A stretch of 55,520 bases of DNA from Candidatus Uhrbacteria bacterium (lineage in GTDB: Bacteria; Patescibacteriota; Patescibacteriia; UBA9934): the NCBI GenBank assembly GCA_003453595.1, contig DMOG01000001.1, forward strand, positions 1 to 55,520. The letters are read 5' to 3'. A model generated the notes under the pieces. It did no database searches, was not told the DNA's origin, and saw nothing but the letters and a program-made list of their open reading frames with translations. Shown one piece after another: positions 2,466 to 55,520 of this stretch. How positions within the stretch are numbered: the first letter of the stretch is position 1; each line of letters opens with the position of its first letter. Both the position numbers and the translations under genes were made by a program.

Positions 2466-3827
2466 TTAAAACTGAGAATAGAGAACTACCAAGCTAAATA
2501 CTGAAAAGAACAAGAATATAATTCCGATAATTACTTTTCGCCACCAAGACGCACGATAAAGTTTAGATAAAGATTTTTGATTTAGGATTGAGACCAATCC
2601 TATATGAACCGCCATGGCAAAAGCGTTAATGCAGGCTCCAATCACGATAAGAGTCTTTGGCTCTGTGATATTAAATAAGAATAAGATTATTCCAAAAGCA
2701 ATTTGTGACCAAACAAAAATTGAATAAAGTTTGGAAAGATTATGATTTCCAGTTTTTAATGATGCATTTTCCGCCATGATTCTTGAGGTTGAATCCATAA
2801 CGCCCAGTTGAGTTTGAAAAAGCATTATCGCTACTGCAAATAAAAATACAATGCCAACCCATGGGCCGAGTTTTGTAGCAATCACTGATCCTTCTAAAAT
2901 CACAAATCCAATCCCTTGTTCCACCCCAGACATGCCAAAAACAGTTGTGTATGAAAGGATCATTAGTAAACAAATTGATAAAGCACCCATAAACCAGAAT
3001 ACCAGTAAATGCTCAATACTAATGCGTTTCCACCAAGTTTTAAAGTTATTGTAAGACTCTTTTGTTTCGGCGAATTCATATCCCTCCAGTCTTATCTTTT
3101 CAATTTTCTTTGATGATCGAAATAGGCCAGCAAGTTTTTGCGCGTATTTTCCCATGCCATAACCTTTTTCTTTGATATAAATAGATTGAGTAAGATTCAA
3201 ATTACCACCAGCGCCCGCGTATGCGAAAGCACCTAAGAAAGTTGCTAAAACAATACCCTCTGGAATAAATAAATAACCATCACCTTGGCCGATAAATCCT
3301 TGCACAAGTGTTGTCCAATCAGATGCGTCTGCTAGAAAGAAAACAATAATAAAGATAAAGGGAACGCCAATTAATAAAATTGTTTTTGTTATTCGCTCAA
3401 GCATTCCATAAACTGTTTTGCCAGAGCTAAGGATTAGCCCGATGATTAAAAGAAAAATGATTGCGATCCACTTAAAATTATCCATTCCAAGAATTGATGC
3501 AAAGACTTGTGCTGAGGCTGCGATAATTCCCGGTAAACCAAATCCTAAAAATGTTGAACCAATAAACCAGATCGGAGCTTTTTTCCAAAATTTATTTATC
3601 CCCACAAATACGCTTTCACCCTTCACGAGTGCATAGCGTTCAATTTCCATGTTGATAAAATATTGGAATGTTATTCCAAGTAACGCGCCCCAGGCTATGC
3701 CTAGTCCATAATTTGATGCTAGGTATGGCCAGAGAATTATTTCACCAGAACCAAGTCCAAGGGCGAGAATTAAAAAACTTGGACCAAAAAGTTTTTTAAT
3801 TGGTAAAGCTTTGGGAAATTTTTTCAT
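2466..3827 (-). CDS. polytopic membrane transporter, Nramp-like (divalent metal transporter family, distant)
   Basis: About 11 hydrophobic helices. The N-terminal GLGSGEIILWPYLASNYG segment resembles the Nramp/MntH-related fold. Start moved to ATG 3827 because the TTG at 3875 lies inside the cfa terminator hairpin. Confidence 0.6.
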   Translation of the reverse strand: MKKFPKALPIKKLFGPSFLILALGLGSGEIILWPYLASNYGLGIAWGALLGITFQYFINMEIERYALVKGESVFVGINKFWKKAPIWFIGSTFLGFGLPGIIAASAQVFASILGMDNFKWIAIIFLLIIGLILSSGKTVYGMLERITKTILLIGVPFIFIIVFFLADASDWTTLVQGFIGQGDGYLFIPEGIVLATFLGAFAYAGAGGNLNLTQSIYIKEKGYGMGKYAQKLAGLFRSSKKIEKIRLEGYEFAETKESYNNFKTWWKRISIEHLLVFWFMGALSICLLMILSYTTVFGMSGVEQGIGFVILEGSVIATKLGPWVGIVFLFAVAIMLFQTQLGVMDSTSRIMAENASLKTGNHNLSKLYSIFVWSQIAFGIILFLFNITEPKTLIVIGACINAFAMAVHIGLVSILNQKSLSKLYRASWWRKVIIGIIFLFFSVFSLVVLYSQF

Positions 3828-3835
3828 ATGAGATA

Positions 3836-3844
3836 AGTATATCA
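3836..3844 (-). promoter_or_regulatory. extended -10 promoter (TGaTATACT), 8 nt from ATG 3827
   Basis: The minus strand reads tttttTGaTATACTtatctcatATG. Confidence 0.5.
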
Positions 3845-3872
3845 AAAAAAGCTGAGACATTTGAGTCTCAGC
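3841..3872 (-). terminator. rho-independent terminator of cfa
   Basis: On the minus strand, gctgagac / gtctcagc hairpin (3851-3872) followed by TTTTTTT (plus-strand A-run 3844-3850). Confidence 0.7.
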
Positions 3873-3885
3873 CAATTTAACTATG

Positions 3886-5007
3886 CTATCTTATAGAATG
3901 ATATCCTCCAATTACTCCATTTTTCGATAATACGATTTGCCAAAGTTGATTTTTTCGACAGCGGAATGATCCTGCGCATGAAAGTAAGTAGTATTTCCAC
4001 ATTCGATAGAATCTCTCATCGTACTGATCTTTGAGGCGCGGCCAGGCATCATCAAAGTTTTTAAACCACGCCATTAATGTTTTGTCGTAATCTGCGCCGA
4101 AATTTTCGATATCCTCGACCACAAATGATCCTTCCATAGACTTGGTAAGCTGTGCTAAAGAGGGAAGCATTGAATTTGTGAAAATATATTTTTCAATCCA
4201 TGCGTCTGTGCTTTTTACTGACTTTTGACCGCCAATGGTATGAAGTAAAAAAAGTCCATTGTCTTTCAAACATCGATTAGCTACCTTGAAGTATGTTTTG
4301 TAATTTTTGTAACCGACATGCTCGATCATTCCTAGTGAAACTATATGATCGAATTTTTCATTTACATCTCGATAATCTTGTAGGCGAATCTCAACTGGCA
4401 GACCTTGGCATCGATCTTGAGCTAACTTTTGCTGTTCCTTTGAAACTGTGATGCCAACGACTGAAGCTCCGTATTTATTTGCAGCAAATTTGGCAAAGCT
4501 TCCCCAACCACAACCAATATCAAGAACTCTATCTCCTTTCTTTAGTCCTATCTTTTTACAGACAAGATCAAGCTTTGCTTTTTGCGCTTCATCAAGATTG
4601 TGTGCATTTTTCCAGTATCCACAAGTATAAACCATGTTTTTATCAAGCATGGCCTGATAAAGGTCATTGCCGGCGTCATAGTGAGACTTGCCAATGCTAT
4701 AAGCTCGCTTGCCTGATTGTCGATTTAATAAAATTGATGCGAGAGTAAGTGCAATCACTGGCCAATTTGCCCGCATCTTTTGGCGTACATCGTCTTTAAG
4801 AATTCTGTCAATCAGTCCATCTATTTGATCACAATCCCACCAACCGTCCATATAGCTCTCTCCCAAGCCCAAAGATCCTCTGGTCAAAACTCGACGATAA
4901 AATCGTTCGTTAATAATTTTTGGGTCCCATTTATTATTACCATTAAGCTTAATTCCAGTGCCATCCAATAAAATCTGTATTCGCTTTTCAGTTTTTGATG
5001 CACTCAT
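3886..5007 (-). CDS. cfa: cyclopropane-fatty-acyl-phospholipid synthase
   Basis: Long collinear matches to the Cfa family: GSLGLGESYMDGWW, the SAM motif VLDIGCGWG, HTIG, and NFGADYDKTLMAW. ATG 5007 is preferred over TTG 5037. Confidence 0.9.
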   Translation of the reverse strand: MSASKTEKRIQILLDGTGIKLNGNNKWDPKIINERFYRRVLTRGSLGLGESYMDGWWDCDQIDGLIDRILKDDVRQKMRANWPVIALTLASILLNRQSGKRAYSIGKSHYDAGNDLYQAMLDKNMVYTCGYWKNAHNLDEAQKAKLDLVCKKIGLKKGDRVLDIGCGWGSFAKFAANKYGASVVGITVSKEQQKLAQDRCQGLPVEIRLQDYRDVNEKFDHIVSLGMIEHVGYKNYKTYFKVANRCLKDNGLFLLHTIGGQKSVKSTDAWIEKYIFTNSMLPSLAQLTKSMEGSFVVEDIENFGADYDKTLMAWFKNFDDAWPRLKDQYDERFYRMWKYYLLSCAGSFRCRKNQLWQIVLSKNGVIGGYHSIR

Positions 5008-17359: not shown

Positions 17360-17384
17360 TATAAGCGAGTCAGCAGTGGAAATA

Positions 17385-17530
17385 TATTTAACCCCCACCC
17401 ACTCCCCCTTGTGAAAGGGGGAGAGACCGAGTCTCGACTTCCCTGAGGAAGCCCGGCGGAGCCGGGTCCGGCTTCACCCCGTCTGACAGGGCTTCGCCAG
17501 AGAGAGTCTAGGGGAAGTCCTCGTTCCTCA
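17385..17530 (+). other. GC-rich intergenic element with nested helices (unclassified)
   Basis: Hairpin 17402-17408/17417-17423. Nested helices 17436-17443/17512-17519, 17448-17453/17470-17475 and 17454-17457/17461-17464. Much GC-richer than its flanks. Confidence 0.4.
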
Positions 17531-17577
17531 TAACCCCTATAACCTCTTCAACCTCCACCACTTTTACCACCTTTATT

Positions 17578-49345: not shown

Positions 49346-49374
49346 TTGACAAAATACTAAAAATTGGGTTTAAT
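49346..49374 (+). promoter_or_regulatory. sigma70-type promoter of the small GC-rich ORF
   Basis: TTGACA (49346-49351), a 17-nt spacer, then TTTAAT (49369-49374). Confidence 0.45.
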
Positions 49375-49403
49375 TGTTGTCCACCCAAGCACAGGACCCA
49401 AAA

Positions 49404-49607
49404 ATGGAAATCTTAATGATGTTCGGCATGATCTTCTGGATCATTCTCTTGACAGCTTGGGCTGCGATGCTCGCATCCCTGTTGATGGGGATGATCGAGG
49501 CCAGACCATGCCTGAAGATCTTCATATGGCTGATGATTATCAGCCTGCTGGCAACGATGGCTGTCGTCGCAATCGACGGCGCCATCAAGTGGTCAGCTAT
49601 GTTCTAA
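49404..49607 (+). CDS. small hydrophobic two-helix protein (67 aa) in a GC-rich islet
   Basis: MEILMMFGMIFWIILLTAWAAMLASLL...IWLMIISLLATMAVVAI. This is the first ATG after the promoter. An imperfect hairpin follows at 49618-49641. Confidence 0.45.
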   Translation: MEILMMFGMIFWIILLTAWAAMLASLLMGMIEARPCLKIFIWLMIISLLATMAVVAIDGAIKWSAMF

Positions 49608-49678
49608 TCTTCTCGTCCCGTCACTCGCGTGGCGGGATTGCGCGTTATAATTAAAATTTTTCAAAAATTTTTCAAATC

Positions 49679-49707
49679 TTGACTTTTTAAAATTAGCACT
49701 CTATACT
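49679..49707 (+). promoter_or_regulatory. sigma70-type promoter of clpB
   Basis: TTGACT (49679-49684), a 17-nt spacer, then TATACT (49702-49707). Confidence 0.7.
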
Positions 49708-49719
49708 TGTGAGTGCTAA
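49693..49719. promoter_or_regulatory. CIRCE operator (HrcA binding site)
   Basis: TTAGCACTC-N9-GAGTGCTAA is a perfect match to the CIRCE consensus. It overlaps the -10 element. Confidence 0.9.
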
Positions 49720-49797: not shown

Positions 49798-52437
49798 ATG
49801 ATTCCCAATAACTTCACTTCCAAATCCCAAGAAGCTGTACAGCTAGCGCAGATGCTTGCTAATGAAAATGGTCAGCAGGCTATTGAGCCAATTCATCTCT
49901 TGGCAAGCTTACTAAACCAAGACGACGGAATTATTCCAACTCTTCTTGCCAAGATGCAAGTAAATACCAATGCGATTTCCCATAACATTGATCAAATTTT
50001 AAATAACCTACCAAAAAACTTTGGCTTTGCCCAAGCTGGAATGGGCCAAATTCTTCTCTCCCCTACTCTGGCAAAAGCCTTACAAGAAAGTGCTAAGCAG
50101 GCAAAACAATTTGGTGATGATTTTATTTCAACTGAACATTTATTTCTTGGACTTTTTACTAACAAACAAATCGCTCAATTTCTAGCTTCCCAAGGAATAG
50201 AGATTAATTCCACTTTGGAAGCATTAAAAGATGTCCGCGGGAATCAAAAAGTTGATTCGGCTGATCCAGAAGCAAAATTCCAAGCCCTGGAAAAGTACAG
50301 TATCAATCTCACAGATTATGCGCGAAAGGGAAAGCTGGATCCAGTTATCGGCCGCGATCAAGAGATTCGGCGTGTTATGCAGATTCTTGTCCGCCGAACA
50401 AAAAATAATCCTGTTCTAATCGGTGAGGCAGGAGTTGGGAAAACTGCCATTGTGGAAGGATTAGCCCAAAGAGTAATCGCCGGTGATGTGCCTGAGATGT
50501 TAAAGGAAAAAGAACTGATATCATTGGACATGGGCGCACTAGTTGCCGGAACAAAGTTTCGTGGTGAATTTGAAGAAAGATTAAAAGCGGTTATTAAAGA
50601 AATTGAAAAATCACAAGGAAAAATGATTCTTTTTATCGACGAACTGCACACCCTTGTTGGCGCTGGAAAAGGAGAGGAGTCCCCTATGGACGCATCCAAT
50701 ATGCTAAAGCCTGCCTTGGCGCGTGGTGAAATTCGAGTTATTGGAGCAACTACTACTAAAGAATATCAAAAGTATATTGAAAAAGACGCTGCCTTAGAGC
50801 GTCGATTCCAACCAATCGTGGTGGAAGAGCCATCAGTAACTGACACTATTGCCATCTTGAGAGGAATTAAGGAAAAGTATGAAATCCACCACGGTGTTCG
50901 CATAAGTGACGCGGCGATTGTTTCTGCAGCTGAACTTTCCAATCGCTATATTACCGATCGTTTTTTGCCTGACAAAGCCATTGATCTAGTGGATGAGTCA
51001 GCGGCTGCACTGCGAATGCAAATCGATTCCATGCCTGAAGATCTTGATCGCCTCAAGCGTGAAGAAATGCGACTGGAGATTGAAAAACAATCACTTCTTA
51101 AAGAAAAAGATAAGCATTCCAAACAAAGACTTAAGGATATTGAAAAAGCTATTGCTGACTCAAAGGAAAAATCTTCAGAACTTGAACTGCGATGGAAAAA
51201 CGAAAAAAACATTATTGAAAATATTCGCGCTTTAAAAAATGAGATTGACAAACTAACCAGTCAGGCCGAGATAGAAGAACGCAAGGGTGACCTACAAAAA
51301 GTTGCCGAAATTCGTTACAGCACAATACCAGCAAAAAGAAAGTCACTGGAAGACTCTCAAGAAACTCTCAAAGTTTTTCAAGAAGAGCGAGGTTTGCTCA
51401 AGGAACACATTGGTCCTGAGGAAATCGCCACGATCGTTTCTCGCTGGACTCATATTCCAATTTCCAAAATGCTACAAAGCGAAATGGAAAAACTGGCAAC
51501 CATGGAAGATGAAATTAAAAAACATGTCGTCGGTCAAGATGAGGCGATAACTGCAGTAAGCAATGCACTTCGTCGCTCTCGAGCAGGAATCTCAGAAGAA
51601 AAACGGCCAATTGGTTCTTTCATTTTCTTAGGTCCAACTGGAGTTGGTAAAACAGAGCTTGCTAAGGTTTTGGCCCAATTCATGTTTGATGACCAAGAAG
51701 CTCTAATCCGTGTCGACATGTCTGAATACATGGAAAAACACAGTGTTAGCAAAATGATTGGGTCACCTCCTGGTTACATCGGACACGATGAGGCAGGTCA
51801 GCTAACAGAGAAAGTTCGTCGTCGACCATATAGCGCAATCCTCTTTGATGAAATCGAAAAAGCTCACCCTGATGTATTTAACATGCTTTTGCAAGTACTC
51901 GATGACGGACATCTAACTGATGCCAAGGGTCGTCGTGTTAATTTCAAGAACACTATAATCATCATGACCTCAAACATTGGCTCTGACATGATTCTTAAAT
52001 CTGGAAAAAATGGTGCGATTGGTTTTGATGATGAGAACCAAAAAAAGGATAATGAAGAGCACGGCATCAAGAAACGAGTAATGGAGATGCTCAAGGAACA
52101 ATTCAAACCTGAGTTTTTAAATCGAGTTGATGAAATAATCTTCTTCTCTGGATTAAGCCAAGACCAAATTGCGGAAATTGTTCAGTTGCAAATTGATTTG
52201 GTGGCACAACGACTTAGTGAACAAAAACATATCACTATTAAAGTCACTGAAAGAACAAAAAAGTTTTTGGCCAAAGAAGGCTATGATCCACAATACGGCG
52301 CCCGACCATTGAAACGCATTATTCAACATCTAATCCTTGATCCGCTGGCAATGAAAATAGTCAAAGGCGAAGTTCCAGAAGAAAGCCATGTCGCTATCGA
52401 CACTATCCAAGACCAAATCAAAATCGCAGTAAAGTAA
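49798..52437 (+). CDS. clpB: ATP-dependent chaperone ClpB
   Basis: Clp N domain, two AAA+ modules ([16 protein letters not shown]), a long middle coiled coil, and GARPLKR. ATG 49798 ([13 protein letters not shown]) is preferred over the upstream alternative start. Confidence 0.93.
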
Positions 52438-52452
52438 TCTACTAAATCCAAA

Positions 52453-52489
52453 AGACCTATAAGTAAATAACTTGCTTATAGGTCTTTTA
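52453..52489 (+). terminator. rho-independent terminator of clpB
   Basis: agacctataag (52453-52463) pairs with cttataggtct (52475-52485), followed by TTTT. Confidence 0.8.
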
Positions 52490-52490
52490 T

Positions 52491-52519
52491 TTGACATTTT
52501 TCGTGTTCTGGGTAATAAT
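52491..52519 (+). promoter_or_regulatory. sigma70-type promoter of the large candidate ncRNA
   Basis: TTGACA (52491-52496), a 16-17 nt spacer, then TAATAAT (52513-52519). Confidence 0.55.
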
Positions 52520-52524
52520 CATTT

Positions 52525-52995
52525 CACTGGTAGAGTTGTCCATTGGATCACAAACAACGTCCAGACCCTGGTCCAGCTGGGAAACCGTTCTCTACCACAA
52601 ACTTAGTCACGGTTGCGCCTGGCTCCGCATAGAGGAGCCAAGAGGCATCCGCGCCTCATTGCCCCGCTACCGAGGGGATTGAAGCAACCGTGACTTCATT
52701 TTTGACTGCGGGGTCGTGCATAACGGATCCTGCCACAGTCGCGTATCGCATAGCCAAACGGTAAAAAAAGCGAAGACCGCTCGAGCCAGCTTGGGCAAGC
52801 CCAGCACATGGCATTCAGTGGTCCTCGAGGAGCGAAAACTGCCTAGGCAGTGGCTGGCGAAGTTTAGTCGCGACCCCGCAGTCATCCATTTCTCGTAAGG
52901 TATTTCGCTGAACGGCTCCTTTCATAGCCTAATGAAAGTAACGCTGAGCCGAAGCGACTCACCTCCTGCCATCTGATTTCGGTCAGATGGTTTTC
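52525..52995 (+). ncRNA. candidate large structured RNA (about 470 nt, unclassified)
   Basis: GC-rich block with perfect long-range helices 52605-52616/52684-52695 (12 bp) and 52703-52716/52871-52884 (14 bp). Further helices at 52528-52535/52590-52597, 52621-52626/52634-52639 and 52913-52918/52946-52951, among others. Only short ORFs in mixed frames. Confidence 0.45.
52969..52994 (+). terminator. rho-independent terminator
   Basis: ccatctga (52969-52976) pairs with tcagatgg (52983-52990), followed by TTTT. Confidence 0.8.
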
Positions 52996-53002
52996 GTATA
53001 CA

Positions 53003-53033
53003 AAAAAACAGGCATCGCCTGATTTTATTTTTT
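53003..53033. terminator. second, bidirectional terminator
   Basis: caggc (53009-53013) pairs with gcctg (53017-53021). Flanked by AAAAAAA upstream and aTTTTaTTTTTT downstream. Confidence 0.7.
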
Positions 53034-53044
53034 ATTACCCTTAT

Positions 53045-53114
53045 TTTTGCGATAACTAAAGCGAAGAATGGCCGTGCCATCCGTAGCTTTTGCGATAACT
53101 AAAGCGAAGGATGG
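53045..53114 (+). repeat. 27-nt direct repeat x2 (one mismatch), period 43
   Basis: ttttgcgataactaaagcgaagaatgg (53045-53071) and ttttgcgataactaaagcgaaggatgg (53088-53114). Confidence 0.6.
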
Positions 53115-53391
53115 TGGGGGCTCATTAACACGATTGGAACCGGAAACCAAAGGGTTGGTAAAGAAAAGGATGACAGTTGAGAAATATTTGGAAAATCAAC
53201 CGGAGGAAGAAATGGATGATTCTGAGCAAATTTCAAGGATTTTGGATTCGGATGCTGAAGTGTGGCTTAGGGTGCATTGGCGACTTTCTGAGTAATTATT
53301 CTTGTTTTGGTATATTTGGTTGAAGGATAATTCGGCGATGGTGAAGGCGTTTGTGGAGGAGGTGAAACGGGGTGTAAGTACGGCTAACTAA

Positions 53392-55520
53392 TTATTTTTC
53401 TCCATATTCGCGTTTACGATGATCTATATCTTCATCAGCACGTTTTTTCTCCCAAACAATCCTATCATTCAGGTACTTTTCATAATTTGTAACAAAATTT
53501 TTAACAACCTTACTTTTATCGGATTTCCAAGACTGCACATCGGCAATTTTTGCCTGATACGCATCTACGAATCCATATTCACCAGAAACTACCCCTGTTT
53601 GCGAAAGAATCACAAATATTTCATTCTGGTATTTTTTATTGTTTGGAAATTGCTTAATGAACTCCTTGCAAACATTATGCAGGAAACCTTCTCCTTCATA
53701 AGCCCTCAACACGGCAATAGCAGTCCGTGCTTTATTCGTAGCCTTACTCTTTAACAAAGCTATTAACTTTGACTCTAAGCACGAATCTAACCGAGGGAAT
53801 AGATTTTTTAACAAGTGAGCACCTTCCCAGTAATTCAACCAGTGAGCCCCCTTGAACCACTTAAAAATCTCATCAATAAATAATTTTTTTGTAGCTTCTG
53901 ACAGATTGCTCAGATCTCCAGCCTGCCTAGGAGTGAAATTAAAAGGAATGGCATCATATCTATCGTCTCGTTTTGTTTTTTTCTTTAACTTTACACGTCT
54001 TTCAAAGAATTGAATGAATTCCTTCGGATCGTTTTTTGCGACCAAGGAGAGTATTGCTTCAGCTTCATAGCTGAGATTTGGAACTGACACTAAACTATCC
54101 AGTACTACCATCCATTCCTCCTTGTTTAAGCTTGCAAACAAAGATTCTGAACTATACCAAATATTTTGTATCCACAATGTATTTTTCAAATCAGTCAGTG
54201 CCTGAATAATATCGATCAGTAAAGATTGAAGGTCTTTAGTGGAATTCGGAAATTTTTTAAATCCAATCGCTCTCACAAGGTGATTCAGCGTATTTACATC
54301 ACCATCAGTCTTCGCTTTTTTAACAAGCTTCTGTATTAACGGTAATGCCAAAGGCAAGTCTTCCTCAGAAATAAATTCATATACCACAGCCATCGCTGGC
54401 AGGAATTTCCCCTGAGTTATCCAGTCATTGAGAATGCCCTTTGCTGTTTCTTTTTCGGTGCTACACCAAATTCCAGCGATGATAATATCTGTAAACGGTT
54501 CAAATACTTTCTCTTCAAGAAGCTTGAGTCCTATTTTGGGTTTTGCTTTAGAAATCTCATTCAATAATTTTCTGAAATAATTAAACTCTCCACGTTCTTC
54601 AGTGTCTGGGTAGTTTTTAATAATTAACAATATTTTTGTAAGCCACTCCTCATAGTTTGTTTCAGAAATATCTTGGACGATTTCCGTAATTTTTTCGTCA
54701 CGTATTTTTCTTGACTCTTCAAAATCCACATCAGGTAAATAGTCGCCGTCATACCCCACGAGTATCCGATACAACTGGTAAGGTTCATTCTTCTGAATTA
54801 CTGCATCTAGCTCAGCTAGGTTTATTGGTGCATCTTTTTCAAATCGTCTCTTAAACCGATGCAACTGCTTCTCGATTTTATACACCACATCAAGATCAGT
54901 AGAAGGAGCAATGGAGATATAAAACTTTAAAATCTCGTCCAGATTATCTCGAACCATGGTCTCCATATCCTCGCCATAATGAGCACTCATTGGGGTATGC
55001 GTTGCAATTTGCAATGCTTCTAAGATAGCAAACTTATTCAGTATACTTTTTTGCAATTGATAGGCCTTTTTAAGAAGACTTATCATTCGAGTCCTCATCT
55101 TTTTGACCGTATCGGTTACTGGTACTGCGCCGTGCCCAATTGTAACGCTACTGGAAGTCCATGTGCTGGCATCAAATTCCGAGTGCAGGACATGTTTCCC
55201 AACCTCTGCGATCAAGGCGGTATTAGTCATTAACTTTGAGTTGTCCCATTTTTCCATGATTTCCAAAATTGCTAGCTGGGCATGAAAATATATTTTTTTA
55301 TCTTTTTCCACATAAACAGGCTCTGTCATTTTCTCCACCACCTCAAAAACCTTCTTTTTATCTTTAATTTTTTCATCAATGGCTAGTTCGGCTAGCACGG
55401 CAAAAACTTTATCCAAGTGCACAAAACGAAGCAGTTTTGATATATCTAATACGACAGCGACCACATCATCATAGGACTGCCCTCTAAGCTCTCCCCATAG
55501 GGGCCTGTTCCTGAATAACA
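53392..55520 (-). CDS. large all-helical repeat protein of unknown function (partial; N-terminus beyond the window)
   Basis: My translation shows the reading frame stays open upstream of the ORF-track GVG... start at 55464 (...LFRNRPLWGELRGQSYDD-VVAVV...) to the window edge. At least 709 aa visible, HEAT/ARM-like helical character, no catalytic motif recognised. Confidence 0.8.
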   Translation of the reverse strand, partial: LFRNRPLWGELRGQSYDDVVAVVLDISKLLRFVHLDKVFAVLAELAIDEKIKDKKKVFEVVEKMTEPVYVEKDKKIYFHAQLAILEIMEKWDNSKLMTNTALIAEVGKHVLHSEFDASTWTSSSVTIGHGAVPVTDTVKKMRTRMISLLKKAYQLQKSILNKFAILEALQIATHTPMSAHYGEDMETMVRDNLDEILKFYISIAPSTDLDVVYKIEKQLHRFKRRFEKDAPINLAELDAVIQKNEPYQLYRILVGYDGDYLPDVDFEESRKIRDEKITEIVQDISETNYEEWLTKILLIIKNYPDTEERGEFNYFRKLLNEISKAKPKIGLKLLEEKVFEPFTDIIIAGIWCSTEKETAKGILNDWITQGKFLPAMAVVYEFISEEDLPLALPLIQKLVKKAKTDGDVNTLNHLVRAIGFKKFPNSTKDLQSLLIDIIQALTDLKNTLWIQNIWYSSESLFASLNKEEWMVVLDSLVSVPNLSYEAEAILSLVAKNDPKEFIQFFERRVKLKKKTKRDDRYDAIPFNFTPRQAGDLSNLSEATKKLFIDEIFKWFKGAHWLNYWEGAHLLKNLFPRLDSCLESKLIALLKSKATNKARTAIAVLRAYEGEGFLHNVCKEFIKQFPNNKKYQNEIFVILSQTGVVSGEYGFVDAYQAKIADVQSWKSDKSKVVKNFVTNYEKYLNDRIVWEKKRADEDIDHRKREYGEK

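Follow-up and report, generated by a model that had tools for sequence, protein, structure and literature searches.

A stand-alone RNA gene directly 3' of clpB

We analysed a 55,520-nucleotide (nt) stretch of DNA from a Candidatus Uhrbacteria bacterium (contig DMOG01000001.1), called the window throughout. For this stretch, an original prediction had proposed an unclassified, independently transcribed and heavily base-paired RNA of ~470 nt located behind clpB. The coding sequence of the heat-shock gene clpB occupies positions 49798-52437, upstream of the RNA block; the coordinates of the block are given on the window, and its features are as follows.

52450-52488, plus strand: clpB terminator, bidirectional, forming the upstream boundary of the RNA unit; 17-nt inverted-repeat arms, 94% complementary, flanked by an A-run and a T-run
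52491-52519, plus strand: sigma-70-type promoter, TTGACA-17-AATAAT, matching 11/12 consensus positions
52528-52597, plus strand: D0, hairpin domain of the minimum-free-energy (MFE) fold, closed by UGGUAGAG/CUCUACCA
52605-52695, plus strand: D1, four-way junction of the MFE fold, with a 12-bp closing helix around hairpins A, B and C
52657-52685, plus strand: hairpin C and its tail, resembling a CRISPR repeat, CAUUGCCCCGCUACCGAGGGGAUUGAAGC; 4-bp CCCC/GGGG stem, 8-nt G...GA loop and AUUGAA(G/A)C tail
52703-52884, plus strand: D3, multi-branched domain of ~180 nt, closed by GACUGCGGGGUCG/CGACCCCGCAGUC; universal core of the family
52884-52900, plus strand: unpaired, pyrimidine-rich tail, AUCCAUUUCUCG..., immediately after the D3 helix on its 3' side
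52905-52957, plus strand: D4, 3' hairpin, UCGCU-CGGCUC-CUUUCAU...AUGAAAG-GAGCCG-AGCGA
52968-52995, plus strand: intrinsic terminator of the RNA, a 10-bp stem followed by UUUUCGUAU (the terminator call itself spans 52968-52991)
53009-53021, found on both strands: second terminator hairpin, bidirectional, with an A-run on one side and a T-run on the other

Both the promoter and the double terminator lie where they had been proposed, and transcription is predicted to start near 52526. The block is also as GC-rich as claimed, with a GC content of 0.53-0.57 across 52500-52900 against 0.39 for the window. Its domains follow one another in the order D0, D1, D3, pyrimidine-rich tail, D4 and terminator; each is closed independently, and no domain brings the 5' and 3' ends together by pairing. 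The closing helix of D0 joins tggtagag (52528-52535) to ctctacca (52590-52597), that of D1 joins agtcacggttgc (52605-52616) to gcaaccgtgact (52684-52695) over 12 bp, enclosing hairpin A at 52620-52640, hairpin B at 52642-52657 and hairpin C, and that of D3 joins tgactgcggggtcg (52703-52716) to cgaccccgcagtca (52871-52884) over 14 bp. Direct reading of the sequence revealed every helix of the original prediction in its place and perfectly complementary. An inverted-repeat search extended the D1 helix to 21-nt arms (52596-52616/52684-52704) and the D3 helix to 21-nt arms with 86% complementarity (52703-52723/52864-52884). By our own estimate, which assumes uniform base composition, 500 nt should contain ~7e-3 perfect inverted repeats of 12 bp and ~5e-4 of 14 bp, in line with the argument that both helices are unlikely to arise by chance.

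The predicted fold of the plus strand (-197.4 kcal/mol) is far more stable than those of dinucleotide-shuffled sequences (-150.5 +/- 6.7 kcal/mol; z = -7.0, with 0/100 shuffles as good), and an independent repeat of this shuffle test gave z = -7.3; the minus strand of the block reached z -4.5. Rfam 15 returned no match at gathering score for the whole window, and in an E-value search of the surrounding 1-kb region the only notable match was a partial CRISPR-DR10 unit at 52657-52685. GOLLD, ROOL, OLE, raiA, HEARO/omega RNA and group I/II introns gave nothing at E <= 10 in the 1-kb region or at E <= 1 in six homologous loci, and ARAGORN found no transfer RNA (tRNA) or transfer-messenger RNA (tmRNA). 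Neither ARAGORN nor the Rfam tRNA model supported the idea that the D1 cloverleaf, read from one strand or the other, is tRNA-like.

Stable RNAs of AT-rich genomes are typically of this size and GC-richness, and a divergent RNase P RNA, tmRNA, signal recognition particle (SRP) RNA or 6S RNA would share both properties. None of these four families was matched by Rfam even at E <= 10, ARAGORN was negative, the 5' and 3' ends do not pair in a terminal helix, and sequence turnover among homologues (see below) is far too fast, in agreement with the earlier failure to see their signatures. An GGAAAGUCC-like string in D3 of one homologue (L028), reminiscent of the RNase P signature, has no covariance-model support. 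A protein gene fares no better: tblastx similarity between homologues is equal in six frames, and the alignment of the window with its relative L007 contains indels of 1-2 nt, which are not multiples of three and break the frame. We therefore regard a known housekeeping RNA or a protein gene as extremely improbable. Promoter and terminator, fold z-scores, the Rfam negatives and the compensatory changes described below all support the RNA as originally proposed. These results clearly indicate a stand-alone gene for a noncoding, heavily structured RNA of ~470 nt, with its own near-consensus sigma-70 promoter and terminator.

Related loci and the conservation of helices

The window ClpB is identical to that of NCBI assembly GCA_001791655.1 and of many metagenome contigs, and the RNA on those contigs is identical too. 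Aquifer and groundwater samples contain the organism, for example those behind this assembly and JGI 3300025000. In loci of ClpB relatives the same place holds the same arrangement: clpB terminator, TTGACA promoter, GC-rich structured block and terminator. Six further lineages with ClpB 76-91% identical to that of the window carry structured blocks of 440-630 nt. The loci, their ClpB identity and the extent of the unit were as follows.

L007: ClpB 91%, full unit
L028 (= L026 = L029): ClpB 84%, full unit
L030/L031: ClpB 84%, full unit
L006: ClpB 83%, full unit
L005: ClpB 82%, full unit
L011-L013: ClpB 76%, full unit
L008: ClpB 76%, short units
L114: ClpB 75%, short units

A perfect TTGACA stands 38-68 nt past the clpB stop codon in 8/9 related loci, a promoter is found in every homologue, and terminator stems are visible in the homologue sequences, whose ends consist of a similar stem and then UUCUUCGCAU or UCUUUGCGU. 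Lineages differ in their domain set. L005, L006 and L028 show the order D1-D2-D3, with D2 a domain between the other two; to this L028 adds D4 and L006 extra hairpins. A D0-type domain stands where D1 would be in L007 and L030, and L011, L008 and L114 retain nothing but a long D3-like helix and, after it, the pyrimidine tail. Two of these, L008 and L114, have the locus divided into 2 or 3 short units; the units have separate terminators in L008, whereas L114 has separate promoters for them. The RNA thus consists of modules in a row that fold separately, every one with a long near-perfect closing helix; between lineages, modules were gained, lost or split off as small transcription units of their own.

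Sequence turnover is so fast that nhmmer barely connects the window with L006, yet the helices are kept. The D3 closing helix is paired in 66/66 cells across the 6 aligned lineages, with 4/11 pairs changed on both sides and one position occupied by four pair types; its covariation score was reached by 0/500 shuffles, and slid controls paired at 39-58%. Inside D3, window and L007 have diverged by ~15% and all 62 predicted pairs are kept, through 3 double and 5 single compensations. The D2 closing helix carries 4 double compensations in 13 bp between L005 and L028. The counterparts of D0 in L007 and L030 are closed by UGG-CUCUGA/UCAGAG-CCA and UGG-CCGUGA/UCACGG-CCA, so that the helix is kept and its sequence is different. 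D1 topology recurs in L005 and L006, and L028 keeps the three hairpins too; the stems of hairpins A and B persist despite different sequences. D4, also present in L007 and L028, combines an invariant middle helix with an apical helix that is wholly different yet always paired and a basal helix in which C-G has become U-A. Thus, of the helices for which covariation had been anticipated, the 14-bp helix and the hairpins inside the 12-bp helix bear it out; for the 12-bp helix itself there is only a topological counterpart, in three homologues. These patterns indicate that helices whose arms lie 140-180 nt apart are selected at the level of structure.

The fold z-scores of the homologues agree with this picture, ranging from -5.5 to -8.0 in six of seven long lineages (-2.7 in L030), and the plus strand was always 2-3.5 units better than the minus strand. 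Helices are ~93% Watson-Crick and ~7% G-U; plus-strand G-U pairs occur in D3 and D2 of L006 and L028 and, in the predicted fold, in the helix that closes D1 of L005. Owing to the nearly complete Watson-Crick pairing, the two strands reach almost the same absolute energy, and the strand assignment therefore rests mainly on promoter, terminators, z-scores and these few G-U pairs.

The almost wholly Watson-Crick helices, together with the similar absolute energy of the two strands, would also suit DNA without an RNA function: a GC-rich insertion at a hot spot after clpB, made of decayed foreign DNA or nested palindromes whose complementarity is maintained by processes that act on DNA, for instance hairpin-mediated conversion or inversion. 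The site is indeed variable, since relatives have GC3-rich open reading frames (ORFs; GC3, GC at third codon positions), DUF5654, GIY-YIG or a transposase there, and by eye the D4 apical loop of L028 resembles the reverse complement of the window loop. Against this explanation stand the near-consensus promoter and the terminator around the block in every lineage, the compensatory changes that maintain helices with distant arms, the plus-strand G-U pairs and consistently better plus-strand z-scores, and the sequence-level constraint on hairpin C and on the pyrimidine-rich tail. We consider it very unlikely. As for the D4 loops (L028 3207-3227, approximate, UUAAGGCUUAC; window 52920-52939, AUAGCCUAAU), their likeness looks like a hairpin-loop inversion and hints at palindrome dynamics at the DNA level.

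Besides its helices, the family keeps one single-stranded element, a tail of the form C(A)YCC-YUUYY, which occurs in all 6 aligned lineages and, in similar form, in L011, L008 and L114. Promoter, long D3-type helix, this tail and terminator make up the universal core. A regulator of the RNAIII type might use the tail, together with CACCUCCU at 52960-52967, which equals the anti-Shine-Dalgarno core, for pairing with purine-rich translation-initiation regions. In favour of such a role, the tail is unpaired and kept in all lineages, and positions 52882-52893 are perfectly complementary over 12 nt to 53208-53219 in the neighbouring small ORF. However, the window genes have no Shine-Dalgarno (SD) sites to pair with, CACCUCCU is exact only in the window, and L028 does not share the 12-nt complementarity, since its homologous codons are different and its tail shows no matching change; being unconserved there, the complementarity is probably due to chance. 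Base-pairing regulation is accordingly a doubtful explanation.

The serial, independently closed domains, the missing pairing of 5' and 3' ends, the lineage-dependent domain set and the free-standing units of L008 and L114 would also fit a precursor of several small RNAs, with the long perfect helices (12-17 bp) as RNase III sites and the whole 470-nt transcript as a polycistronic operon of small RNAs. A length of 12-17 bp is about the minimum for RNase III, which speaks against it; moreover, processing is compatible with a role as protein-binding scaffold or decoy (see below) and does not exclude that role. As an explanation in its own right we hold it to be unlikely.

The genes 3' of the RNA vary by lineage (a small ORF, tRNA-Ala, an MFS transporter or a transposase). 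A tRNA-Ala(GGC) gene directly follows the RNA in two lineages (L005 9274-9350; L030 5114-5190); the window has none. L028 has a mutator-family transposase (3280-4086) as an insertion that separates the RNA from the small conserved ORF, which means that the site 3' of clpB accepts insertions. A cis-regulatory leader (riboswitch, T-box or attenuator) was rejected because a strong terminator follows the RNA and the downstream genes differ among lineages.

Synteny of the locus is conserved (tRNA synthetase genes, alanine racemase, clpB). Phage and plasmid collections contained nothing similar to the RNA, and a mobile-element origin was rejected for want of such matches and of any true viral-contig homologue: viral contig L116, the single match to a D3 pattern, is a chance match within a GC-rich phage gene, and the hairpin C pattern had no viral match. 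More distant relatives carry DUF5654, GIY-YIG or GC3-rich ORFs after clpB, and the family is narrow for that reason; a metagenome scan with the ClpB C-terminus added, among the matches listed, only distant relatives, which do not have the RNA. The RNA is modular and fast-evolving, in contrast to ornate RNAs of broad conservation; it has been found so far in one Candidatus Uhrbacteria subclade and always directly 3' of clpB. It is a real, new, lineage-restricted RNA family.

A hairpin resembling a CRISPR repeat

The small cccc/gggg hairpin at 52662-52677 is present as originally described; its likeness to CRISPR repeats had been missed. CRISPR-DR10 matched hairpin C of the window with 28.1 bits (E 5e-4 in the 1-kb search; gathering score 39), the L006 copy with 25.8 bits and the L028 copy, over the full model, with 42.4 bits, which is above the gathering score. 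The unit has the form CCCCG-N8-GGGGATTGAAAC. It is almost invariant across the 4 lineages that bear D1, whereas its flanks diverge and cannot be aligned. In blastn, hairpin C was 92-97% identical over 26-30 nt to genuine repeats, which nothing else in the RNA matched, and it is oriented in the direction of transcription with the AUUGAAAC handle on its 3' side.

We scanned a 22-nt pattern derived from the Uhrbacteria copies over 185,579 species genomes (GTDB species representatives). It matched genuine arrays in two Myxococcota-type metagenome-assembled genomes (MAGs), with repeats GTCGCAGACCCCACCCCGACACAGAGGGGATTGAAAC and GTCTCGGGACCCTCCCCGCTACAGAGGGGATTGAAAC; one full array matched by the pattern adjoins cas1. 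The other matches were one two-repeat mini-array, a few single ones and the Patescibacteria contig of the RNA itself. The motif occurs once per locus in the RNA family, and 52440-53400 contains no direct-repeat family of it.

Several observations touch on this hairpin. Hairpin A has a G...GA loop similar to that of hairpin C and, from its sequence, looks like a diverged duplicate of C. The loops of the two hairpins might form a kissing contact, through UAG/CUA in the window and L028 and GUUA/UAAC in L005. Solitary CRISPR-DR10-like units occur outside arrays in Alphaproteobacteria (L014 3216-3243; L024 5792-5813; L025 5545-5566; L027 4283-4304): the L014 unit is 96% identical to the window hairpin over 27 nt, in both L024 and L025 a terminator is followed by the same conserved intergenic copy, and the stand-alone copy of L027 lies in a genome that also holds the full array.

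On the preferred reading, to which we assign a probability of about 0.5, the RNA would be an abundant protein-binding scaffold or decoy, i.e. a ribonucleoprotein, with hairpin C recognised by a hairpin-specific protein and the D3 stem and tail by a second partner. The long, fast-evolving helices would provide a rigid, nuclease-resistant scaffold, and function would reside in the sequence-constrained elements: the D3 closing stem and pyrimidine tail in all lineages, and the G...GA hairpins A and C where D1 is present. Hairpin C with its AUUGAAAC tail would mimic type I/III CRISPR repeats, with their hairpin for Cas6 binding and their 8-nt handle; it could be bound, and possibly cut, by a Cas6/RAMP-type RNA-binding protein or endoribonuclease, or by an unrelated protein of like specificity.

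A number of points weigh against this reading. The sole pattern match within Patescibacteria among the species genomes scanned is the RNA itself; no cas gene was found among the scanned ORFs of the window or the called genes of related loci; and, according to one paper (PMC11608272, citing Burstein 2016), CRISPR-Cas is nearly absent from genomes of the Candidate Phyla Radiation (CPR), with arrays in 1.4% of MAGs. Hairpin C is absent from L007, L030 and L011, and because these three lineages do without it, it cannot be the essential core. Furthermore, 7-9 lineages were compared in total, no gene besides clpB is conserved beside the RNA, and nearly pure Watson-Crick helices with similar absolute fold energies of the two strands leave some probability for palindrome maintenance at the DNA level.

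A direct link to CRISPR could take two forms. Either Cas6 would cut at the base of hairpin C, between 52677 and 52678, and the downstream RNA, carrying the 8-nt AUUGAAAC handle, would enter a type I/III effector as a regulatory guide resembling a CRISPR RNA, or the uncut RNA would soak up Cas6 and handle-binding Cas proteins in the manner of RNA anti-CRISPRs (Racrs). Hairpin C and its tail are indistinguishable from the 3' 26-30 nt of genuine repeats, with 42.4 bits in L028 and 92-97% identity to the repeats of the cas1-linked array; its orientation follows transcription, it is constrained at the sequence level, and stand-alone RNAs that resemble repeats are known to act as regulators or anti-CRISPRs (10.1101/2023.03.03.530964; PMC10651486). 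On the other hand, there is no array, second repeat or cas gene across the 55-kb window or the related loci, and no Patescibacteria array with this repeat in the 185,579 species genomes; the rarity of CRISPR-Cas in CPR (PMC11608272) and the three lineages without the hairpin tell against this link as well. In addition, the would-be guide is unconserved and base-paired within the RNA, and the context is a housekeeping chromosome, not a mobile element. We judge such a link unlikely.

A further, rather speculative idea, which we hold to be quite unlikely, is a new CPR-specific class of large RNA that would have co-opted the CRISPR repeat (Cas6 hairpin and handle) as a functional module in organisms from which CRISPR-Cas was lost or was always absent. 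It has two versions: an orphan site for a Cas6-derived RNA-binding protein acting outside immunity, and a repeat-mimic decoy of an episymbiont against foreign CRISPR-Cas.

Other window features, related RNAs and significance

Further features of the window and its relatives lie outside the RNA gene. A perfect CIRCE operator (TTAGCACTC-N9-GAGTGCTAA; 49693-49719) overlaps the clpB promoter, also in L006, which implies control of clpB by HrcA. Upstream, 49348-49650 holds a small GC3-rich ORF (ATG at 49405 to stop at 49608, 67 aa, two hydrophobic segments) with its own TTGACA promoter and a terminator in the same style as that of the RNA; L006 has a GC-rich 198-aa ORF at this position. GC-rich blocks at L005 12150-12695, at L006 5143-5739 and in L032-L034 were rejected as RNA candidates, being real GC3-rich ORFs unrelated to the RNA; those of L005 and L032-L034 are small, with ~60-65% GC in genomes of 36-51% GC. 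Another GC-rich block of the window (17370-17577; GC 0.54-0.57) forms several short GC hairpins directly upstream of the methionyl-tRNA synthetase gene, from which a 55-nt G-poor, C/U/A-rich tract separates it up to the ATG; it has a fold z of -2.6 and no Rfam match, and may be a leader element.

Downstream of the RNA, a 27-nt direct repeat, TTTTGCGATAACTAAAGCGAAGRATGG (53045-53071 and 53088-53114, 96% identical), precedes the small conserved ORF (MTVEKYLENQPEEE...WLRVHWRLSE), which we place at about ATG 53173 to stop 53295 and which is the shorter of the two when compared with its homologue in L028, since a TAA in the window replaces a GAA. Among 30 gene starts in the window, almost none has an SD sequence, and in some a TATAAT-like box stands only a few nt ahead of the ATG (for example 1135 and 46494), a pattern that suggests leaderless mRNAs.

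The closest parallels to hairpin C are the solitary repeat-like RNAs, namely Racrs (PMC10651486) and the cr-like RNAs and mini-arrays (10.1101/2023.03.03.530964). They share with it a single conserved unit in sense orientation, outside an array, with a Cas6-type hairpin and an 8-nt handle. Whereas those RNAs occur in phages, on plasmids or inside CRISPR-cas loci and are about repeat-sized or mini-arrays with a spacer, the unit described here is one arm of a four-way junction in a 470-nt RNA, at a housekeeping locus with no cas genes in view, and is dispensable in some lineages. Nor does the locus resemble the mobile elements by which Racrs are recognised, given its conserved synteny and the lack of phage or plasmid matches.

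OLE, GOLLD, ROOL, raiA and HEARO/omega RNA are comparable in being GC-rich relative to their genomes, several hundred nt long, multi-domain and stand-alone. Genes for tRNAs are often seen as neighbours of GOLLD and ROOL, and like them the RNA here adjoins a tRNA gene, in two lineages. Those classes, however, have many conserved unpaired nucleotides, a fixed architecture and a wide phylogenetic range, whereas the sequence and domain set of the present RNA turn over within a clade of ClpB 76-91% identity, and it has no IscB/IsrB or phage neighbour. A strong promoter and terminator of its own, hairpins arranged like beads on a string and fast evolution with only short motifs kept are traits shared with Staphylococcus RNAIII, CsrB/RsmZ and 6S/Ms1. 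In contrast to CsrB, it shows no GGA-loop repeats by eye (no formal count), and CsrA-type GGA motifs, looked for in the same way, were not enriched; in contrast to 6S, it forms no rod with a central bubble; and in contrast to RNAIII it embeds no ORF, while C/U-rich seed pairing to SD sites is unlikely because window genes do not have SD sequences.

In the literature searched we found no lineage-specific noncoding RNA described for CPR/Patescibacteria. With the RNA reported here, this group, which makes up a large share of bacterial diversity, would have a documented case of a large structured RNA with its own transcription. It offers an unusually clear case of helix-preserving evolution over short phylogenetic distances, and shows domain shuffling, in that modules which some lineages fuse in one transcript are separate units elsewhere. 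A sequence-constrained copy of a Cas6-type repeat in a lineage nearly devoid of CRISPR-Cas raises the question of whether the repeat was recruited outside immunity or has a hidden cognate protein. If abundant, the RNA would be a tractable target for metatranscriptomics, pull-downs and cryo-electron microscopy (cryo-EM).

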